A DNA stretch of 32,000 nt from Rickettsiales bacterium (GCA_031279085.1 JAITJD010000037.1:1-32000), one strand, 5' to 3'; counted from the stretch's first letter, positions 8,888 to 24,381 are shown. Made by a program: numbers and translations. Notes: generated from the letters alone by a model not told the origin.

Positions 8888-8962
8888 GCGAGCATAGTAC
8901 AAAGGCTAGTATGCGAGCCTTCCAAGCTTGAGATGAGGGTTCGATTCCCTCTGCTCGCACCA
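8888..8962 (+). tRNA. tRNA-Gly (anticodon UCC), CCA encoded
   Basis: Cloverleaf folded by hand. Acceptor GCGAGCA/TGCTCGC, D stem GTAC/GTAT, anticodon stem CGAGC/GCTTG with loop CTTCCAA, T arm GAGGG-TTCGATT-CCCTC, discriminator A plus CCA. Total 75 nt. Confidence 0.9.
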
Positions 8963-8967
8963 TGATT

Positions 8968-9054
8968 GGGCGTGCGCCGGAGTTGGAGAGCCGGGGCAGA
9001 CTGTAAATCTGTTGGCTTATGCCTGAGCTGGTTCGAATCCAGCCACTCCCACCA
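8968..9054 (+). tRNA. tRNA-Tyr (anticodon GUA), class II with long variable arm, CCA encoded
   Basis: Acceptor GGGCGTG/CACTCCC (one C4-U69 mismatch), D arm CCGG-AGTTGGAGAG-CCGG, anticodon stem GCAGA/TCTGT with loop CTGTAAA, variable arm GGC-TTAT-GCC, T arm GCTGG-TTCGAAT-CCAGC, then A plus CCA. Total 87 nt. Confidence 0.85.
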
Positions 9055-14804: not shown

Positions 14805-15974
14805 CTATTGGCCTGTATTCTTCATAACATCGGCCAGCAGGTTTTTCACCTGCATTATAATAGCTTTGGAATCGAATCTTTCCAGTCTGCCGGCGGCGTT
14901 GCCTATCAATTTTTGCGCATCCGGCCTTTCGTGCAGTATGTCTGACATTATTTCCGCAAGCCTCTCGGCATCGCCAGGCTTGAACAATATTCCGGCATCG
15001 CCGTCCATGAGAATTTCGGCCACCCCGCTTTTGCAGTCTGACGCAATGTTCAAGGTTCCGCAGACCGCGCTTTCAACCATGACGGTCGGCAAGCCTTCGG
15101 CGCGGCTGGACAGTATATGCGCCATGGCGCCGCGCATGTATCCAAAAGGACGGGATACGGAGCCGGTGAAAATAATATTGTTTTTTATATGGGTACTTTG
15201 AGCAAGCCTCTCAAGCTTTCCGCGCAGTTTTCCATCGCCGACGATAAGCAATTTTACTTCCGGGCATTGTTCGTGGCGCAAGAAAATGTCAAATGCGCGG
15301 ATTATGGTCTCTATGTCTTTGTCCGCAGCCAGCCTGGATACGGATAAAAAATATTTTCCTGGAAATGCCGGCAGCTCTCGTGATAGCTTCTTTATGCCGC
15401 CGATGTCGATAGGGTTGTATATCCTGACTATTTTTTCGCGCCCCGATTTATGCGTTGATTGAAAATCTCGCAGAAAGCTGTCGGACAGACAGACTATTCT
15501 GTCGTATTCCCGGATTTGCCGTTCTCCAAAATGCCGGTTAAAAAAGTCTATTCCGCCATGAATCCATGTAATTTTCGCGCAGCGCGCATGTTTTAATTCC
15601 TTGATGCATGAAAAGTTTTTATAATCAATGACAATGTCGAAGTCCTTTATGGCCATATCTCGTTTCAGTCGTCGCCGCATAATTTTCTTATAAATGCTCC
15701 AAGATATCTTTCTGATGTTTTTGATCGGAAAAAAATTAAGAATCCCCCGCCACCGGAACCTGTTTGCCGCCGGGTATACTATGTGCAATTTTATATTCGG
15801 GTTTATCCCGAACCAATCCGTATAAAATTTTTCTTTCAGCGGTTCTAATAAAAAAACGGACAAATCAAAAGAATCATCTTTTAACAATTCTTCCAAAGTT
15901 CTGATGAATACATTTTCAGTGCCGCCAATAATCATGTCGGGCATAAAGAAAGCTGTTTTTATTTTGCCAATCAT
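14805..15974 (-). CDS. glycosyltransferase family 4 (GT-B, group 1)
   Basis: The C-terminal motif HILSSRAEGLPTVMVESAVCGTLNIASDCKSGVAEILMDGDAGILF is the EX7E-type GT4 signature region. Confidence 0.8.
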   Translation of the reverse strand: MIGKIKTAFFMPDMIIGGTENVFIRTLEELLKDDSFDLSVFLLEPLKEKFYTDWFGINPNIKLHIVYPAANRFRWRGILNFFPIKNIRKISWSIYKKIMRRRLKRDMAIKDFDIVIDYKNFSCIKELKHARCAKITWIHGGIDFFNRHFGERQIREYDRIVCLSDSFLRDFQSTHKSGREKIVRIYNPIDIGGIKKLSRELPAFPGKYFLSVSRLAADKDIETIIRAFDIFLRHEQCPEVKLLIVGDGKLRGKLERLAQSTHIKNNIIFTGSVSRPFGYMRGAMAHILSSRAEGLPTVMVESAVCGTLNIASDCKSGVAEILMDGDAGILFKPGDAERLAEIMSDILHERPDAQKLIGNAAGRLERFDSKAIIMQVKNLLADVMKNTGQ

Positions 15975-16082
15975 TTTGTCTTCTCTGGATTCCGTTCAAC
16001 GATGTATTGAAGATGATTCAAAATTCCCTTTCGAATTAGCGCCGGTTTTCCGCGTCTTTAAAGGTTCGCGGCGACGGATTCA

Positions 16083-16106
16083 TTAAAAACCGCCAAAAAT
16101 TGGCGG
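16083..16106 (-). terminator. intrinsic terminator downstream of xth (minus strand)
   Basis: Read on the minus strand: CCGCCAA-ttt-TTGGCGG followed by TTTTTAAT. The stem is at 16090-16096/16100-16106 and the A-run at 16085-16089 on the plus strand. Confidence 0.6.
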
Positions 16107-16320
16107 CCGGGAAGTTAGAAAAATCAATCTTATCAATGATCCCGCAGATTTCGGGCAAGCCCTGTTGTATAACCGCGGCTTCCCGACCATGTGTCAGGAT
16201 TCGGCGCAAAAACGCCATTTATTTTGACGACGCTGTTTGCGCCGGATAAGAAAGGGATTTTCTAAGTCCCGGACTTCGAAAAGAAATCCAAAATGACTTT
16301 AATAGAATAAGTTCAAAAAG

Positions 16321-17218: not shown

Positions 17219-18799
17219 ATGAATATGTTTCAATTGCTGGAAAAGACAACCGGTGCTTATCCGGATAATCTTTTCTTGGTCCGCGAAGAGGTCACATACA
17301 GGCAATTCGTGGATTTGGTAAAAAAACGGGCGGCTACTTTGGATAAGGAAGGCGTCAAAAGCGGCGATGTCATAGGAATTCTTGCGCATAATATTCCTGA
17401 ATTTCCAATATCATTGTTTGCGGTTTGGTATCTGGGTGGCAAATGCCTGCTGCTGGATACCAACCTGACTCCGTTTGAATACGACAATATGGCCATGCTG
17501 ACAGGCTGCAAAATGATTTTGGCGGAAAAGTCGTTCTTTTACAAGACAGACAAATTTGCTTTTCTTGACATAACGGCTAAAGATGGCGAAATCAATCCGG
17601 ATTTAAAGCCAGCCGCTGTCGAATCCCCTGACATCGCGACACTGTCGTTCACTTCGGGTTCTACCGGCACGCCGAAAATAGTGCCTTTGACTCACTTTAA
17701 TTTGGTTGAATGCGCGAATTCTTTGGAGGATATGAACAAATGGATCAAACCCGGCGATATTTTGTACGGCTTCCTGCCGATGTACCATGTGTACGGCTTT
17801 GCGGTCGAATTGCTGGCGACATTACATTATGGCGCGGGCATCCTGCTGCAACCTACGGTGAATCCAAAGGATATCATGGACGACTTTGCGAAATTTCGCC
17901 CTCATGTCATTCCGGCCGTGCCGCGCCTGTGGGAGCTTTTGCGCAATAAAATCATAGACAGCATCAAAGCGCAGAAAAAATGGTGGCTGGCCTCGTTCGT
18001 TCTGAAACACGGCAAGTTTTTGCAAAAGATAGGCTTGGGTTCTCTTGTCAAAAAAGTCCAGACCCCCGTGTTGCAGGCTTTTGGCGGACGCGCGAATCTT
18101 CTTATCGCTGGCGGCGCCGCAACCAAGCCCGAAGTTGAGACTTTCTACGAACGTCTTGGCCTGACTTTCATACAAGGATATGGCCTGACCGAAACAGTGG
18201 GGCCGATATGTATTTCCAAACCGGTCAAAAAACGGTTTCCTTTTTCATTCGGCGGGCCTATAACAAACAATGAATGCGAAATCCGCGACAAAAACGAAGA
18301 TGGCATAGGAACTTTGTGGCTGCGCGGCCACCAGGTGTTTGACGGCTATTTGGACAACCCGGAGGTAAATGCCGAGGTGTTTGACGACCGCGGATTCTTC
18401 AATACCGGAGACTTGGTAACAATGGACAAAAACGGCGAGCTGCACTTTGCCGGCCGCAAGAAGCAGGTCATTGTTCTGGATTCGGGCAAGAATGTTTACC
18501 CGGAAGAACTGGAAGCTTTGTTCATGACAATTCCAGGCGTCAAGAATGTAGCGGTGTTCGAGCATAATATAAAAAACAAAACGGTTTCTTATGCTGTGTT
18601 CAACGTCGACGACAAAATGACGATGGAGGAACTATCCGCTGCGGTATCCCAGGCGAATAAAAAAGTCGCCAGCTACAAATGGGTCACCCATTTCGCGATG
18701 ACGACCCAAGACCTGCCGCTGACCAGCACCCAAAAGGTGCGGCATCATCTTGTGCGTCAGAATCTGATTGACGGAAAATATCCGCTGCGCAAAGAATGA
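17219..18799 (+). CDS. AMP-dependent synthetase/ligase (long-chain acyl-CoA synthetase-like)
   Basis: AMP-binding motif LSFTSGSTGTPKIV, then YGLTET, TGDL and GRKKQVIV. Confidence 0.8.
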   Translation: MNMFQLLEKTTGAYPDNLFLVREEVTYRQFVDLVKKRAATLDKEGVKSGDVIGILAHNIPEFPISLFAVWYLGGKCLLLDTNLTPFEYDNMAMLTGCKMILAEKSFFYKTDKFAFLDITAKDGEINPDLKPAAVESPDIATLSFTSGSTGTPKIVPLTHFNLVECANSLEDMNKWIKPGDILYGFLPMYHVYGFAVELLATLHYGAGILLQPTVNPKDIMDDFAKFRPHVIPAVPRLWELLRNKIIDSIKAQKKWWLASFVLKHGKFLQKIGLGSLVKKVQTPVLQAFGGRANLLIAGGAATKPEVETFYERLGLTFIQGYGLTETVGPICISKPVKKRFPFSFGGPITNNECEIRDKNEDGIGTLWLRGHQVFDGYLDNPEVNAEVFDDRGFFNTGDLVTMDKNGELHFAGRKKQVIVLDSGKNVYPEELEALFMTIPGVKNVAVFEHNIKNKTVSYAVFNVDDKMTMEELSAAVSQANKKVASYKWVTHFAMTTQDLPLTSTQKVRHHLVRQNLIDGKYPLRKE

Positions 18800-18803
18800 A
18801 CTG

Positions 18804-18834
18804 AAAAAACCGGCCGTTCGGCCGGTTTTTTATT
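18804..18834 (+). terminator. intrinsic terminator (symmetric A-run/T-run, potentially bidirectional)
   Basis: AAAAAA-CCGGCC-gttc-GGCCGG-TTTTTT, starting 5 nt after the stop codon. Confidence 0.85.
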
Positions 18835-18974
18835 TCTGGCGCCTCAGGATTTCAAATCTGATTTTTGTAAACGACGCGTCGCCGCCGCGCAATTTGTATT
18901 CATCGGGCCAAGGCCATAGCCGGCTTCATAGGGCATAATTATAAAATTGCCTTTGCTATGATTCCTAATTATTC

Positions 18975-19003
18975 TTTACAAGTTTTTATCTTTCTGATAT
19001 AAT
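18975..19003 (+). promoter_or_regulatory. strong sigma70-type promoter candidate
   Basis: TTTACA (18975-18980), 17-nt spacer, TATAAT (18998-19003). It lies in an AT-rich stretch ~180 nt upstream of ATG 19182. Confidence 0.55.
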
Positions 19004-19009
19004 GACCGC

Positions 19010-19181
19010 GTCGCAGAGTTCTTTCTGTGATGGGGCTTGACAACCTCTCTTTTACGCGTCCTTGGGGACGAAAAACTCCTGTCAACGGCAGGAGTAGTCG
19101 AGGAATATATCAAAACTCGGCTGCTATTTCGTAAAAGATAGTTGTCAAACTCCTGCCACCTTTTCATAAGGAGTGTGATGC
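19010..19181 (+). promoter_or_regulatory. structured 5' leader (candidate riboswitch/thermosensor-type translational control element)
   Basis: An 8-bp long-range helix, TTGACAAC (19037-19044) / GTTGTCAA (19141-19148), encloses four hairpins: 19057-19070, 19075-19095, 19096-19122 and 19124-19141. The 9-mer AAACTCCTG occurs twice (19073-19081 and 19147-19155). ACTCCT (19149-19154) is complementary to the SD AGGAGT (19169-19174). GGCAGGAGT (19087-19095) is complementary to ACTCCTGCC (19149-19157). Confidence 0.5.
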
Positions 19182-19529
19182 ATGAAAAAATTATTTGCGG
19201 CGATTATCGCCGTTTTCCCCATGCTGGCGTTCGGAAACGTCGACCTGATTGCGCGGCGCGCCGAATTGGAAAAGCAGATTGAGTTGGTCGATTCCGAAAT
19301 CGCGCGCTGCAAGAAACAGCAGAAGAATTGGAAAATCGCAACCATAGTCGGCAGCGTCGGAACAGTCGCGACCGGAATCGGCGCGATAGCGCAGCAATCG
19401 GCCATCAATGAAAATAAAAAAGATATTGATTTGCTTAAAAAGCGATCGGACGCGAATATGAAAATTATTTTAGATAATAAGCAAATTCTGAAAGAGGAAA
19501 CTGAAGCACTGGAAGGAGTTACGAAATGA
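19182..19529 (+). CDS. small secreted/membrane protein, paralog A (signal peptide, Cys-containing coiled coil, Gly-rich hydrophobic segment)
   Basis: Signal peptide MKKLFAAIIAVFPMLAFG, then ELEKQIELVDSEIARCKKQQKNWKIATIVGSVGTVATGIGAIAQQ. AAGGAG lies 8 nt upstream of the ATG. Confidence 0.65.
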   Translation: MKKLFAAIIAVFPMLAFGNVDLIARRAELEKQIELVDSEIARCKKQQKNWKIATIVGSVGTVATGIGAIAQQSAINENKKDIDLLKKRSDANMKIILDNKQILKEETEALEGVTK

Positions 19530-22796: not shown

Positions 22797-23369
22797 TTAT
22801 TGACCTGTATAATAGCAAGTTTGCATAAATTGCCAGTTTCCTGAATAATCGCTGCCATTGGGCGGCGAGGCATAGCATTTGCTTTTTGTGGTATTATCTC
22901 CTGCGACGCTGGTTCCGCCTGTCGGGCAAATCTCGCAGCCGGAAGTTCCATTAGTGCTGGTGCCGTAATACCCCGCTGCACAACGATAGGCGGTTGAAGA
23001 GTTGCAAGTATTGCAGCTGCATGATTTGGTTGTCTTTTTCTGGTATCCTGTCCCGTATGCGCTCCAATCAGCATCGCTGGTGCAATTCGTGCAGCCGGTG
23101 CAGGATATAATGCATTCATTTAATATGCATGTATAACCGCTGCCGCAATGCGAATCGGTTGCACATTCGATGGTATAGTAAATTTTCGAACCGCATGTGC
23201 AGGTGTCGTAGGCAGAGGATATAAATGTGCAAGCATCATTATCAAAAAACAGACCGGTGCAGGTCTCGCTTGGTTGGCAGGCTGGTGTCGAGCATTTTGC
23301 AAATGCGCTGATGCAGCAAAAAATCACTGCAAAGCAAACAAAAATTGTCCGCATAATAAATTTTTTCAT
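22797..23369 (-). CDS. secreted cysteine-rich protein (190 aa; 21 Cys after the signal peptide; Thr/Ser/Gly/Tyr-rich)
   Basis: Signal peptide MKKFIMRTIFVCFAVIFCCISAFA|K. Dense CxC/CxxC spacing (TCTCG, SCTGCTNCT, SCSCNTCN). The C-terminal segment CAAGYYGTSTNGTSGCEICPTGGTSVAGDNTTKSKC resembles ephrin-receptor-like/VSP-type Cys repeats. SD AAGGGGG (23382-23376) lies 6 nt before the ATG. Confidence 0.7.
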   Translation of the reverse strand: MKKFIMRTIFVCFAVIFCCISAFAKCSTPACQPSETCTGLFFDNDACTFISSAYDTCTCGSKIYYTIECATDSHCGSGYTCILNECIISCTGCTNCTSDADWSAYGTGYQKKTTKSCSCNTCNSSTAYRCAAGYYGTSTNGTSGCEICPTGGTSVAGDNTTKSKCYASPPNGSDYSGNWQFMQTCYYTGQ

Positions 23370-23581
23370 TCAAAGCCCCCTTGTTTTCAGAACGAAAAAA
23401 CCACCGGTTTAATGGTGGTTGGAGGCTAGAAACTATCGGTTAAATAGTGCGACGTATTCGGCAAAGCCTTATTCCGCCAGCCCTCCAACCAAAAAGATTG
23501 GAGAAGCATCGCGCAATCACGTCGCGCGCACACACGTAACCGAAGAGGCTTCTAGACCCCGCCGCGGGAACACCCCGCGAC
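23370..23581 (-). promoter_or_regulatory. structured GC-rich 5' leader of the Cys-rich protein gene with terminator/antiterminator alternative (candidate riboswitch or attenuator; alternatively a ~190-nt sRNA)
   Basis: All elements are read on the minus strand. Hairpin at 23581-23561 (8 bp) and hairpin at 23528-23510. CTCCAA (23503-23498) can pair with GGTTGGAGG (23490-23482). That 9-mer is perfectly complementary to CCTCCAACC (23425-23417). CCTCCAACC overlaps the terminator 5' arm AACCACC (23420-23414) by 4 nt. Confidence 0.55.
23395..23420 (-). terminator. intrinsic terminator located inside the leader, ~12 nt upstream of the SD of the Cys-rich gene
   Basis: Minus strand: AACCACC-attaaacc-GGTGGTT followed by TTTT, which makes a 6-U run when the two stem T's are counted. 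Confidence 0.75.
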
Positions 23582-23587
23582 ACTGTC

Positions 23588-23596
23588 AATATAGCA
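23588..23596 (-). promoter_or_regulatory. extended -10 promoter element TGCTATATT (minus strand)
   Basis: The reverse complement of aatatagca at 23588-23596. A tandem 9-mer, TATAGAAAG/TATAGAAAA (23606-23623, plus-strand reading), occupies the -35 region. Confidence 0.4.
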
Positions 23597-23688
23597 TAAA
23601 AAGTTTATAGAAAGTATAGAAAATAATTTATTCGCTTTTTGAACATAATCCGAATATGAAACAAATGATGAGACCGGTCCCTGATTTT

Positions 23689-24381
23689 CTAGTTCAATAA
23701 AAACATATTTCTGGCGGAATAGACCATATCACCGGATACCAGCAGATGGTCGAACAGTTCGATATCTACGTTTTTCAAAAGCTTTTTCACATCCAATGTT
23801 ATTCTTATGTCTTCTGATGAAAAAGACGCAGCGCCCCCTAGATGGTTATGCAGCATCACCGCAAAGCATGAATTTAGGTTCAGCGCGCGCTTTAGTATTT
23901 CCCTGGGATACACCGCCGCCCAATTTATCGTGCCAGAGCTGTGCAGATCATCCGACAGCAGCCGGTAATCCGAATCCAGAAACAAAACATGAAGCTCTTC
24001 GACCTTCTTGCCGGACAATAATAATTTGCAATAGTCGGCCAGCTTTTGATAATCATGGAACACGGGCGAATTGTTCAGATAATTTTTGTAATCAAGCAGC
24101 ATTATTTCATAGATTGCCTTGATGAAAATCGCGGTGCTTTTTCCAATCCCGGGAAGTTTTACAAGCTCTTTTGACGGCGCGGTTATGACTTTGTGCACCC
24201 CGCCGAATGTCATCAGCAAATTTTTTGCAATCGGGCTCGCGTCCTGTCTTGGAATCGCGTAAGTCAGCAATAATTCCAAAATCTCGTAATCTACGCACTT
24301 GTGTTCCAGGAATTTTTCACGCAGTATCTCCCTATGCCCAAGGCAGTAATATGAATCTCCTGAATTCAATTTAAACCTCAT
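23689..24381 (-). CDS. radC: RadC-family JAMM-domain protein (230 aa from ATG 24381; ORF-track start 24459 adds a 26-aa hydrophobic extension)
   Basis: LGHREILREKFLEHKCVDYEILELLLTYAIPRQDASPIAKNLL, HhH LPGIGKSTAIFIKAI, and a JAMM-like MLHNHLGGAASFSSEDI (usual form HNHPSGxxxPSxxD). An extended -10, TGCTATAAT (24403-24395), lies inside the longer ORF version. Confidence 0.75.
   Translation of the reverse strand: MRFKLNSGDSYYCLGHREILREKFLEHKCVDYEILELLLTYAIPRQDASPIAKNLLMTFGGVHKVITAPSKELVKLPGIGKSTAIFIKAIYEIMLLDYKNYLNNSPVFHDYQKLADYCKLLLSGKKVEELHVLFLDSDYRLLSDDLHSSGTINWAAVYPREILKRALNLNSCFAVMLHNHLGGAASFSSEDIRITLDVKKLLKNVDIELFDHLLVSGDMVYSARNMFLLN

Follow-up and report, generated by a model that had tools for sequence, protein, structure and literature searches.

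A putative transcription-attenuating leader RNA, distantly related to phage C4/sRNA-Xcc1 modules, in front of cysteine-rich protein genes of uncultured bacteria

We analyzed a 32,000-nucleotide (nt) stretch of DNA from a 'Rickettsiales bacterium' metagenome-assembled genome (MAG) (GCA_031279085.1 JAITJD010000037.1:1-32000; the whole stretch is called the window), in which a structured element at 23370-23623 on the minus strand directly precedes a gene for a cysteine-rich (Cys-rich) protein. A prediction made from the sequence alone had described the element as a leader whose strands can pair as 1:2, 2:3 or 3:4, in the manner of an attenuator. This architecture is supported by our comparison of related leaders, in which strands 1, 2 and 3 change coherently, and both competing folds are shown by the alignments to be conserved. 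The ~190-nt leader, with an extended -10 promoter of its own, is probably a cis-acting attenuator that is OFF by default.

The leader and its two competing folds

All of the elements first proposed, namely the promoter -10, the hairpins, the switch strands, the terminator and the Shine-Dalgarno (SD) sequence, were found at the coordinates given for them in a sequence check of the minus strand. The leader reads as follows, from 5' to 3':

23623-23606 (-): tandem 9-mer TTTTCTATA/CTTTCTATA
23596-23588 (-): extended -10 promoter element TGCTATATT
23561-23581 (-): P0, the 5' hairpin GUCGCGG-GGUGUU-CCGCGGC with a conserved loop (covariation)
23560-23547 (-): GGGGTCTAGAAGCC, part of the b1 region
23545-23560 (-): b1 element GGGGUCUAGAAGCCUC, forming either a small b1-presenting hairpin or helix P1a/P1b with b' and CCUC far downstream
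23537-23543 (-): a1 segment UCGGUUA, which can pair with the P3 loop as long-range helix P1c
23510-23529 (-): central GC hairpin (88.8% paired, 3 double-changed pairs)
23498-23503 (-): strand 1 (anti-antiterminator) CUCCAA (CTCCAA in DNA), with covariation of the 1:2 helix
23482-23490 (-): strand 2 GGUUGGAGG (GGTTGGAGG in DNA), partner of strand 1 or strand 3
23449-23481 (-): P2 arm of the three-way junction, an internal loop of GAAUA - small hairpin - GAAUA
23432-23448 (-): P3 hairpin with the loop UAACCGA (a'), complementary to a1
23426-23432 (-): b' (UUUCUAG), the junction between P3 and strand 3, pairing with b1
23432-23421 (-): TTTCTAGCCTCC, partner of GGGGTCTAGAAGCC
23417-23425 (-): strand 3 CCUCCAACC (CCTCCAACC in DNA), pairing with strand 2 and with GGGG of b1; its AACC is shared with the terminator
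23395-23420 (-): intrinsic terminator AACCACC-ATTAAACC-GGTGGTT followed by a T run (terminator scan)
23382-23376 (-): SD AAGGGGG, with the ATG of the Cys-rich gene at 23369

In the OFF fold, strand 1 would keep strand 2, b1 and a1 would pair with the junction segment b' and the P3 loop a', and GGGG would pair with CCUC of strand 3. With these pairings, formation of the terminator hairpin would end transcription 25 nt short of the start codon. In the alternative fold, the pairing of strands 2 and 3 would close a three-way junction containing P2 and P3 and take 4 nt from the 5' arm of the terminator, favoring read-through into the Cys-rich gene. A trigger would set the balance, either by stabilizing the junction or by releasing the b1/a1 lock.

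The first homologous leaders were found through protein homology alone, 5' of genes for Cys-rich homologues (39-44% identity) in L015-L018, in L025 and, for each of two divergent genes, in L019. They share a promoter, a 5' hairpin, a GGGGUGU-type element, a GC hairpin, CUCCUG...GGUCAGGAGG, two hairpins, CCUCCUGACC and a terminator; the locus of a further homologue (P0004 in L014) has a 116-nt upstream spacer only and no leader. A pattern derived from these leaders was used to scan metagenomes and gave at least 120 stretches. Among the matches listed, 84 distinct members, often several per contig, were kept after obvious chance matches had been dropped. Since the pattern had fixed the sequences of strands 2 and 3 as well as the terminator, we derived a covariance model, R1, from the 3' domain to search beyond it, and this model found copies with other core sequences.

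In an alignment of 81 leaders, the OFF fold (P0, P1a/P1b/P1c, the central helix, the GC hairpin, 1:2, P2 and the terminator) had 94.6% of its cells paired and 34 pairs changed on both sides; none of 500 shuffles was as high on any measure, and slid controls reached 35-53%. The junction fold (b1 hairpin, 2:3 closing stem, P2 and P3) was 94.5% paired, with 26 both-side-changed pairs. Covariation among homologues, proposed earlier as a check, is thus seen for both competing folds. Among the single helices, P0 was paired in 98.8% of cells with both-side changes in 7/7 pairs, the long-range helix P1a/P1b in 98.4% with 5 double-changed pairs, and the two halves of P1c in 88% and 94%, with all 6 pairs changed on both sides. 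The pairing of GGGGTCTAGAAGCC with TTTCTAGCCTCC, which had been mentioned merely as a further alternative, turned out to be the best-supported helix of all. The local b1 hairpin that rivals it was 90% paired, P3 97%, and the terminator stem 89.7% (3 double-changed pairs); the P2 stem showed covariation in 4/4 pairs.

The b1/a1 segments and their 3' partners are hypervariable yet matched, with a mean duplex energy of -19.2 kcal/mol for cognate and -11.1 kcal/mol for non-cognate combinations; the cognate 3' partner ranks first in 45 of 71 leaders. For the window copy, the cognate duplex has -23.0 kcal/mol, compared with a mean of -11.3 kcal/mol with non-cognate partners.

In the model-based alignment, the 2:3 helix was 97.2% paired with 7/10 pairs changed on both sides, and the 1:2 helix was 91% paired. 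Columns 25-27 of strand 2 covary with strand 1 (columns 9-11) and likewise with strand 3. The copies found independently of the pattern fall into these core types:

Strand 1 CUCCUG; strand 2 CAGGAG; strand 3 CUCCUG
Strand 1 CUCCAA; strand 2 UUGGAG; strand 3 CUCCAA
Strand 1 UCCYGA; strand 2 UCGGGA; strand 3 UCCCGR
Strand 1 ACUCCUG; strand 2 CAGGAGU; strand 3 ACUCCUG

Energies were also predicted for the window copy. The 206-nt RNA folds at -88.1 kcal/mol, compared with -65.1 +/- 4.2 kcal/mol for 200 shuffles, none of which did as well (z = -5.48), and its minimum-energy fold holds 1:2, the terminator and the long-range GGGGTCTAGAAGCC/TTTCTAGCCTCC pairing. The OFF fold of the full leader has -87.8 kcal/mol and the junction fold -69.8 kcal/mol, whereas the 3' domain alone, deprived of the 5' lock, has -36.1 and -32.5 kcal/mol, respectively. 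The predicted OFF default is therefore due to the long-range lock.

The transcript probably starts ~6-7 nt 3' of TGCTATATT, just 5' of the first hairpin. The proposed -10 is supported by the 81 aligned relatives, in which a TAnAAT box with a conservation of 90% or more stands equally far upstream of the first hairpin; the tandem 9-mer upstream of it, which had been counted with the promoter, is not conserved across the leader family. The promoter was not called by a sigma-70 consensus scan because its -35 is poor. The terminator, with a 7-bp stem, an 8-nt loop and U6, was called independently by the scan tool. A 49-amino-acid (aa) open reading frame (ORF) starting with TTG (23440-23589) was rejected as coding, because the variation tracks the helices and the indels are not in threes. 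As a separate observation, most relatives carry U4-5 behind the central GC hairpin that separates a1 from strand 1 (alignment columns 155-195, e.g. L096 9676-9700), whereas the window copy has no U run there. The hairpin with U4-5 could be a first terminator or pause site that releases a short RNA bearing b1/a1.

Genes behind the leaders and further copies in the window

In 72 of the 84 members, an SD-bearing ORF begins 2-51 nt (median 28.5) after the U run, leaving little or no room for a promoter in between, as had been claimed for the window gene. The N-termini of 64 of these 72 ORFs resemble signal peptides, and the downstream proteins have a median length of 187 aa and a median cysteine content of 8.2%. 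The window's Cys-rich protein (P0001, 22797-23369) is LBD50_03935 of the MAG and contains no Pfam domain. Paralogues are encoded in this MAG, and homologues in MAGs labelled 'Alphaproteobacteria bacterium'; the two paralogues P0002 and P0003 are 89-92% identical over the aligning conserved half, and the N-terminal halves do not align. Exact-protein look-ups for the Cys-rich protein, RadC (the product of the neighboring radC) and these two paralogues returned no record.

Small coiled-coil or helix-turn-helix-like proteins, or a DNA methyltransferase, are encoded behind a sub-group of leaders whose core is GGCAGGAGG or GGUUGGAGG. In the members with the GGCAGGAGG core (L038, L046, L065, L068, L078, L129 and L083), what follows is either such a small protein, of 54-73 aa, or a C5 DNA methyltransferase, which hints at mobile-element surroundings nearer to the phage ancestors discussed below.

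Two further copies of the element lie in the window itself:

19008-19181 (+): second copy; R1 49.7 bits, E 5e-7 (19072-19181); core GGCAGGAGU/ACUCCUGCC
16082-16290 (-): third copy; R1 43.5 bits (16082-16204); core GGUCGGGAAG/CUUCCCGGCC; with a terminator

The second copy has no U-tract; instead of the terminator, its predicted fold has a hairpin whose 3' arm contains the SD AAGGAG, so that the copy appears to be the same switch on a translational platform. It precedes a gene for a 115-aa protein (19182-19529) with a hydrophobic N-terminus that looks like a signal peptide by eye, and a 183-aa ORF follows. The third copy lies 108 nt 5' of a GT4 glycosyltransferase gene (14805-15974; Pfam). The 5'/3' locks of the three window copies are mutually orthogonal. 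Judged by sequence comparison, then, the leader RNA represents a large family, absent from Rfam 15, that occurs in uncultured gut bacteria with several copies per genome.

The multi-copy nature would also fit a repeat or mobile DNA element. It is, however, very hard to believe that the element has no function at the RNA level and reflects such DNA, chance complementarity or the terminator of radC, since compensatory changes occur in at least 34 pairs with shuffles never as high, the promoter box is conserved, and inspection shows no relation between the sequences that flank the three window copies. The helices of the family also contain many G-U pairs and are strand-asymmetric, with forward-strand covariance model scores of 90-105 bits and 20-33 bits on the reverse strand. 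As for radC, the terminator is not its 3' end, as it stands ~290 nt past the radC stop codon and behind its own promoter. We also rejected an RNA linked to radC: the genome collection holds a single radC relative (48% identity), whose downstream region lacks the element and has a convergent gene at the expected position of the leader.

Kinship with sRNA-Xcc1 and C4 RNAs

At gathering scores, Rfam 15 gave no hit in the leader region and two tRNAs in the whole window, and ARAGORN found no tRNA or tmRNA in the leader region. Adjacent tRNA-Gly(TCC) and tRNA-Tyr(GTA) genes are located at 8888-9054 (+). The earlier statement that the leader fits no known class thus stands, all Rfam matches being below the gathering score. 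Under permissive conditions, the full sRNA-Xcc1 model (1-87) matched 23409-23490 (-) with 31.6 bits (gathering score 53), and c4-a1b1 matched the 5' half (23541-23594 (-)) with 23.9 bits (gathering score 46.7). The other window copies behaved similarly: c4-a1b1 scored 24.1 bits at 18997-19051 (+) in the second copy, and the third copy reached 39.7 bits (E 1e-4) with sRNA-Xcc1, the best such score in the window. In 20 relative loci, no Rfam match reached the threshold, and sub-threshold sRNA-Xcc1 matches recurred, at 34-35 bits in two of them. The C4 model (RF01695) had no match at E <= 10 in 23250-23800. BLASTN searches of the leader against phage and plasmid records gave chance matches or none, as did our first DNA patterns on viral contigs, with chance matches only.

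The small RNA (sRNA) sRNA-Xcc1 (RF02221) is found in integron cassettes, genomic islands and temperate phages. Genuine sRNA-Xcc1 copies, recovered via the Rfam consensus, score 72-86 bits (a genuine C4 in L006 scores 77 bits) and, in the temperate phages and the one plasmid that carry them, directly precede ant, KilA-N or Bro-N genes. In the four loci that we inspected (L005 1280-1660, L006 1330-1640, L007 1300-1640 and L008 1330-1600), an upstream b1 is complementary to the junction strand and a1 to the P3 loop, and in three of the four, copies of b2/a2 lie over the SD of the ant/KilA-N genes. Because of this b1/a1 complementarity and the b2/a2 copies over the SD, sRNA-Xcc1 looks like a C4-type antisense regulator of antirepressor genes. 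This is a by-product of the analysis that suggests a function for a poorly defined sRNA.

sRNA-Xcc1 and the leader family share a three-way junction whose closing stem of 9-10 bp ends in an ACC tail, and both have a P3 hairpin and a P2 arm in which AAUA-type internal loops flank a small hairpin. In both, b1 and a1 lie upstream, b1 being complementary to the junction strand and a1 to the P3 loop. In the reciprocal search, the R1 model matched genuine sRNA-Xcc1 at 28 and 22 bits. There are also differences. The window copies, at 31.6-39.7 bits, do not reach the sRNA-Xcc1 gathering score, and the near-invariant P2 core of sRNA-Xcc1, AAUACAAUACCCGAAAGGGGAAUA, is absent from the window leader. The P2 core of the latter reads GAAUA-AGGCUUUGCC-GAAUA, and most relatives have GAAUAUAUUGAAUAA; the third window copy is closer, with UUAUACAAC-AGGGCUUGCCC-GAAAU. 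In addition, the four inspected sRNA-Xcc1 loci lack strand 1 and a U-tract terminator, both of which are present in the leader family.

The C4 RNAs of phages P1/P7 (RF01695, RF03163) show the same order of promoter, b1/a1 hairpin(s) and a processed three-helix RNA with a'/b'. As in the leader, b' takes the first bases of the 3' strand of the closing stem, and the pairing of b1 rivals this stem. The C4 model itself, by contrast, leaves the window leader unmatched, only c4-a1b1 scoring 24 bits. Repression of icd/ant by C4 through a2/b2 at the ribosome-binding site (RBS) was reportedly described by Citron and Schuster in 1990. C4 is not known to have an intrinsic terminator directly before the gene that it regulates. 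In C4-like RNAs, the variable a'/b' confer specificity, and C4 blocks icd/ant through pairing with a2/b2 at the RBS (PMC5320573). The C4-like sRNAs of Acinetobacter baumannii are likewise multi-copy, chromosomal RNAs with a phage-type antisense fold, a variable a' and a 5' GGW start; they differ in matching the C4 model itself and are not described as terminator leaders for genes of secreted proteins (PMC5320573).

The sub-threshold matches to sRNA-Xcc1 and c4-a1b1, each in the expected half of the leader, together with the reciprocal matches of R1, lead us to take the family as a distant homologue of the whole C4/sRNA-Xcc1 module, with an origin in phage antisense RNAs controlling antirepressors. 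Compared with the phage modules, and as judged from the sequences, the leaders appear to have no copy-specific downstream targets and to have gained the anti-antiterminator strand and the U-tract terminator. A phage immunity antisense module would thus have been rebuilt as a terminator-based leader for chromosomal genes.

The same kinship keeps a serious rival in view, which we consider unlikely, namely that the element is a stand-alone, trans-acting sRNA gene of the C4/sRNA-Xcc1 type, the terminator simply ending the sRNA. The junction would then be the mature RNA, possibly after an RNase P cut at the GGU of strand 2, and b1/a1 would mask a'/b' in the precursor; the Cys-rich gene would be expressed by leaky read-through only, or be repressed by the anti-SD-like CCUCC. 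The well-placed sub-threshold matches recur (sRNA-Xcc1 at 31.6, 39.7 and 34-35 bits; c4-a1b1 at 23.9 and 24.1 bits), R1 finds genuine sRNA-Xcc1 in return, and genuine sRNA-Xcc1 loci share the b1/a1 complementarity to junction and loop. From strand 2 onward, the RNA is predicted to fold into the junction plus the terminator hairpin (-32.7 kcal/mol). Moreover, RNase P-type 5' processing would agree, at the sequence level, with the A-CC tail and with the way strand 2 begins (GGU/GGC), a beginning that resembles the GGW RNase P site reported for C4-like sRNAs (PMC5320573). This alternative, already named in the original prediction, stays viable because the element sometimes occurs as gene-less tandem arrays, with promoter-like boxes in between (four copies in L055 8480-9383; two in L078 345-542). 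These resemble the multi-copy tandem arrangement of sRNA-Xcc1, of which five tandem genes lie in a Xylella genomic island (PMC12189769).

Several observations oppose it. We found no copy-specific a2/b2 downstream: a1 did not recur downstream above chance (permutation p = 0.86), the similarity of b1 to downstream sequences was weak (4.37 vs 4.17 matches, p = 0.006, an effect of 0.2 nt), and the 3' segment, when paired with the downstream region, gave duplexes of -11.5 kcal/mol for cognate and -10.6 kcal/mol for non-cognate pairs. C4-style a2/b2 targets over the downstream RBS are thus rejected or at most weak, a generic CCUCC:SD complementarity remaining. The SD does not track the core type either; a candidate covariation between the two was rejected, as L124-639 has a UUGGAG core and a CAGGAG SD. 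Strand 1 would have no role in a pure sRNA and yet covaries with strand 2, and the promoter-less ORFs are tightly linked to the element in 72/84 members.

Weighing the attenuator and its possible triggers

The four-strand logic of the proposed attenuator (1:2, 2:3, 3:4) is that of trp-type leaders, the T-box and ON-type purine riboswitches, and classical attenuators likewise include three-way junctions whose closing helix competes with the terminator. Such systems rely on a leader peptide, a specifier/T-box or a known aptamer, none of which is seen in the leader family. The additional copy-specific long-range lock is the family's own feature and is unusual for an attenuator.

A number of points weigh against the attenuator. 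In the window copy, the junction fold is weaker by 18 kcal/mol. The pairing of strands 2 and 3 proposed as the antiterminator is well supported, whereas its exclusivity with the terminator is only partial in this copy, because a weaker 6-bp hairpin before the U run survives the full 2:3 helix; the predicted 2:3 helix may thus leave termination intact. The independent evidence for 1:2 and 2:3 is confined to a few related lineages with about four core types, because the search pattern had fixed strands 2 and 3 and the terminator. Inspection of the alignment showed no conserved start, frame or small ORF of a leader peptide, and Rfam models for T-box and riboswitches, as well as for isrK, matched neither the window leader nor the 20 relative loci, so that these searches offer no sensor. 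The downstream genes are too diverse to point at an obvious metabolite, and the element also occurs in the gene-less arrays described above.

A ligand riboswitch is an improbable version of the switch, in which the junction, with its conserved GAAUA...GAAUA loop, would act as an aptamer; a small molecule or a second messenger would bind to it, stabilize 2:3 and turn the genes ON. The competition of a junction-closing helix with the terminator has the topology of an ON switch, the nucleotides of the junction and the P2 loop are conserved, the two expression platforms (terminator and SD hairpin) would suit a riboswitch, and copies precede secreted or surface-related genes. On the other hand, the same junction core occurs in phage antisense RNAs, and, unlike a ligand pocket, both the P3 loop and the junction strand vary strongly between copies and are paired to copy-specific 5' segments. 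The gene set also lacks metabolic coherence.

For the attenuator in general, a small ligand is thus one candidate trigger; a protein recognizing the conserved GAAUA loops and an RNA acting on b1/a1 or a'/b' are others. A precedent for the last is IsrK of the Gifsy-1 prophage, where one promoter yields a terminated short RNA and a read-through mRNA, alternative structures A and B are described, and the terminated isoform remodels the read-through isoform (PMC4825925). As in the leader lock, the 5' RNA forms a long-range helix with a segment further downstream, and this helix holds the long form inactive (PMC4825925). IsrK differs in exerting translational control via an upstream ORF, whereas both helix partners of the leader family lie 5' of the terminator. 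In Stx phages, isrK is found immediately 5' of a C4 gene.

We also consider it conceivable, though doubtful, that the private address of each copy (b1/a1 with b'/a') makes the leader a self-specific RNA switch, the short RNA isoform pairing in trans with nascent transcripts of its own locus only. In an IsrK-like manner, the short or processed isoform would compete with the cis lock and flip the balance between termination and read-through. If true, this would provide copy-by-copy, possibly bistable feedback over a secreted Cys-rich multigene family in uncultured gut Alphaproteobacteria, and an RNA-only path to variable surface or secreted repertoires.

Whatever the trigger, the 84 distinct members add a large structured-RNA family of gut-type metagenomes to those in Rfam 15. 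They also offer a handle on the regulation of unstudied small secreted Cys-rich proteins in uncultured, host-associated Alphaproteobacteria.

Two minor observations concern other parts of the window. A strong GC hairpin flanked by T runs at either end (18763-18868 (+)), 3' of the gene at 17219-18799, looks like a bidirectional terminator, which explains weak matches to STnc240, MicX and the rnk leader. Two contigs from SRR14710901 (L003 and L004), whose YebC and RuvC proteins are identical to the window's own, end exactly at the borders of the block formed by the Cys-rich gene, the leader and radC (22830-24185), suggesting strain-level variation or repeat-induced assembly breaks.

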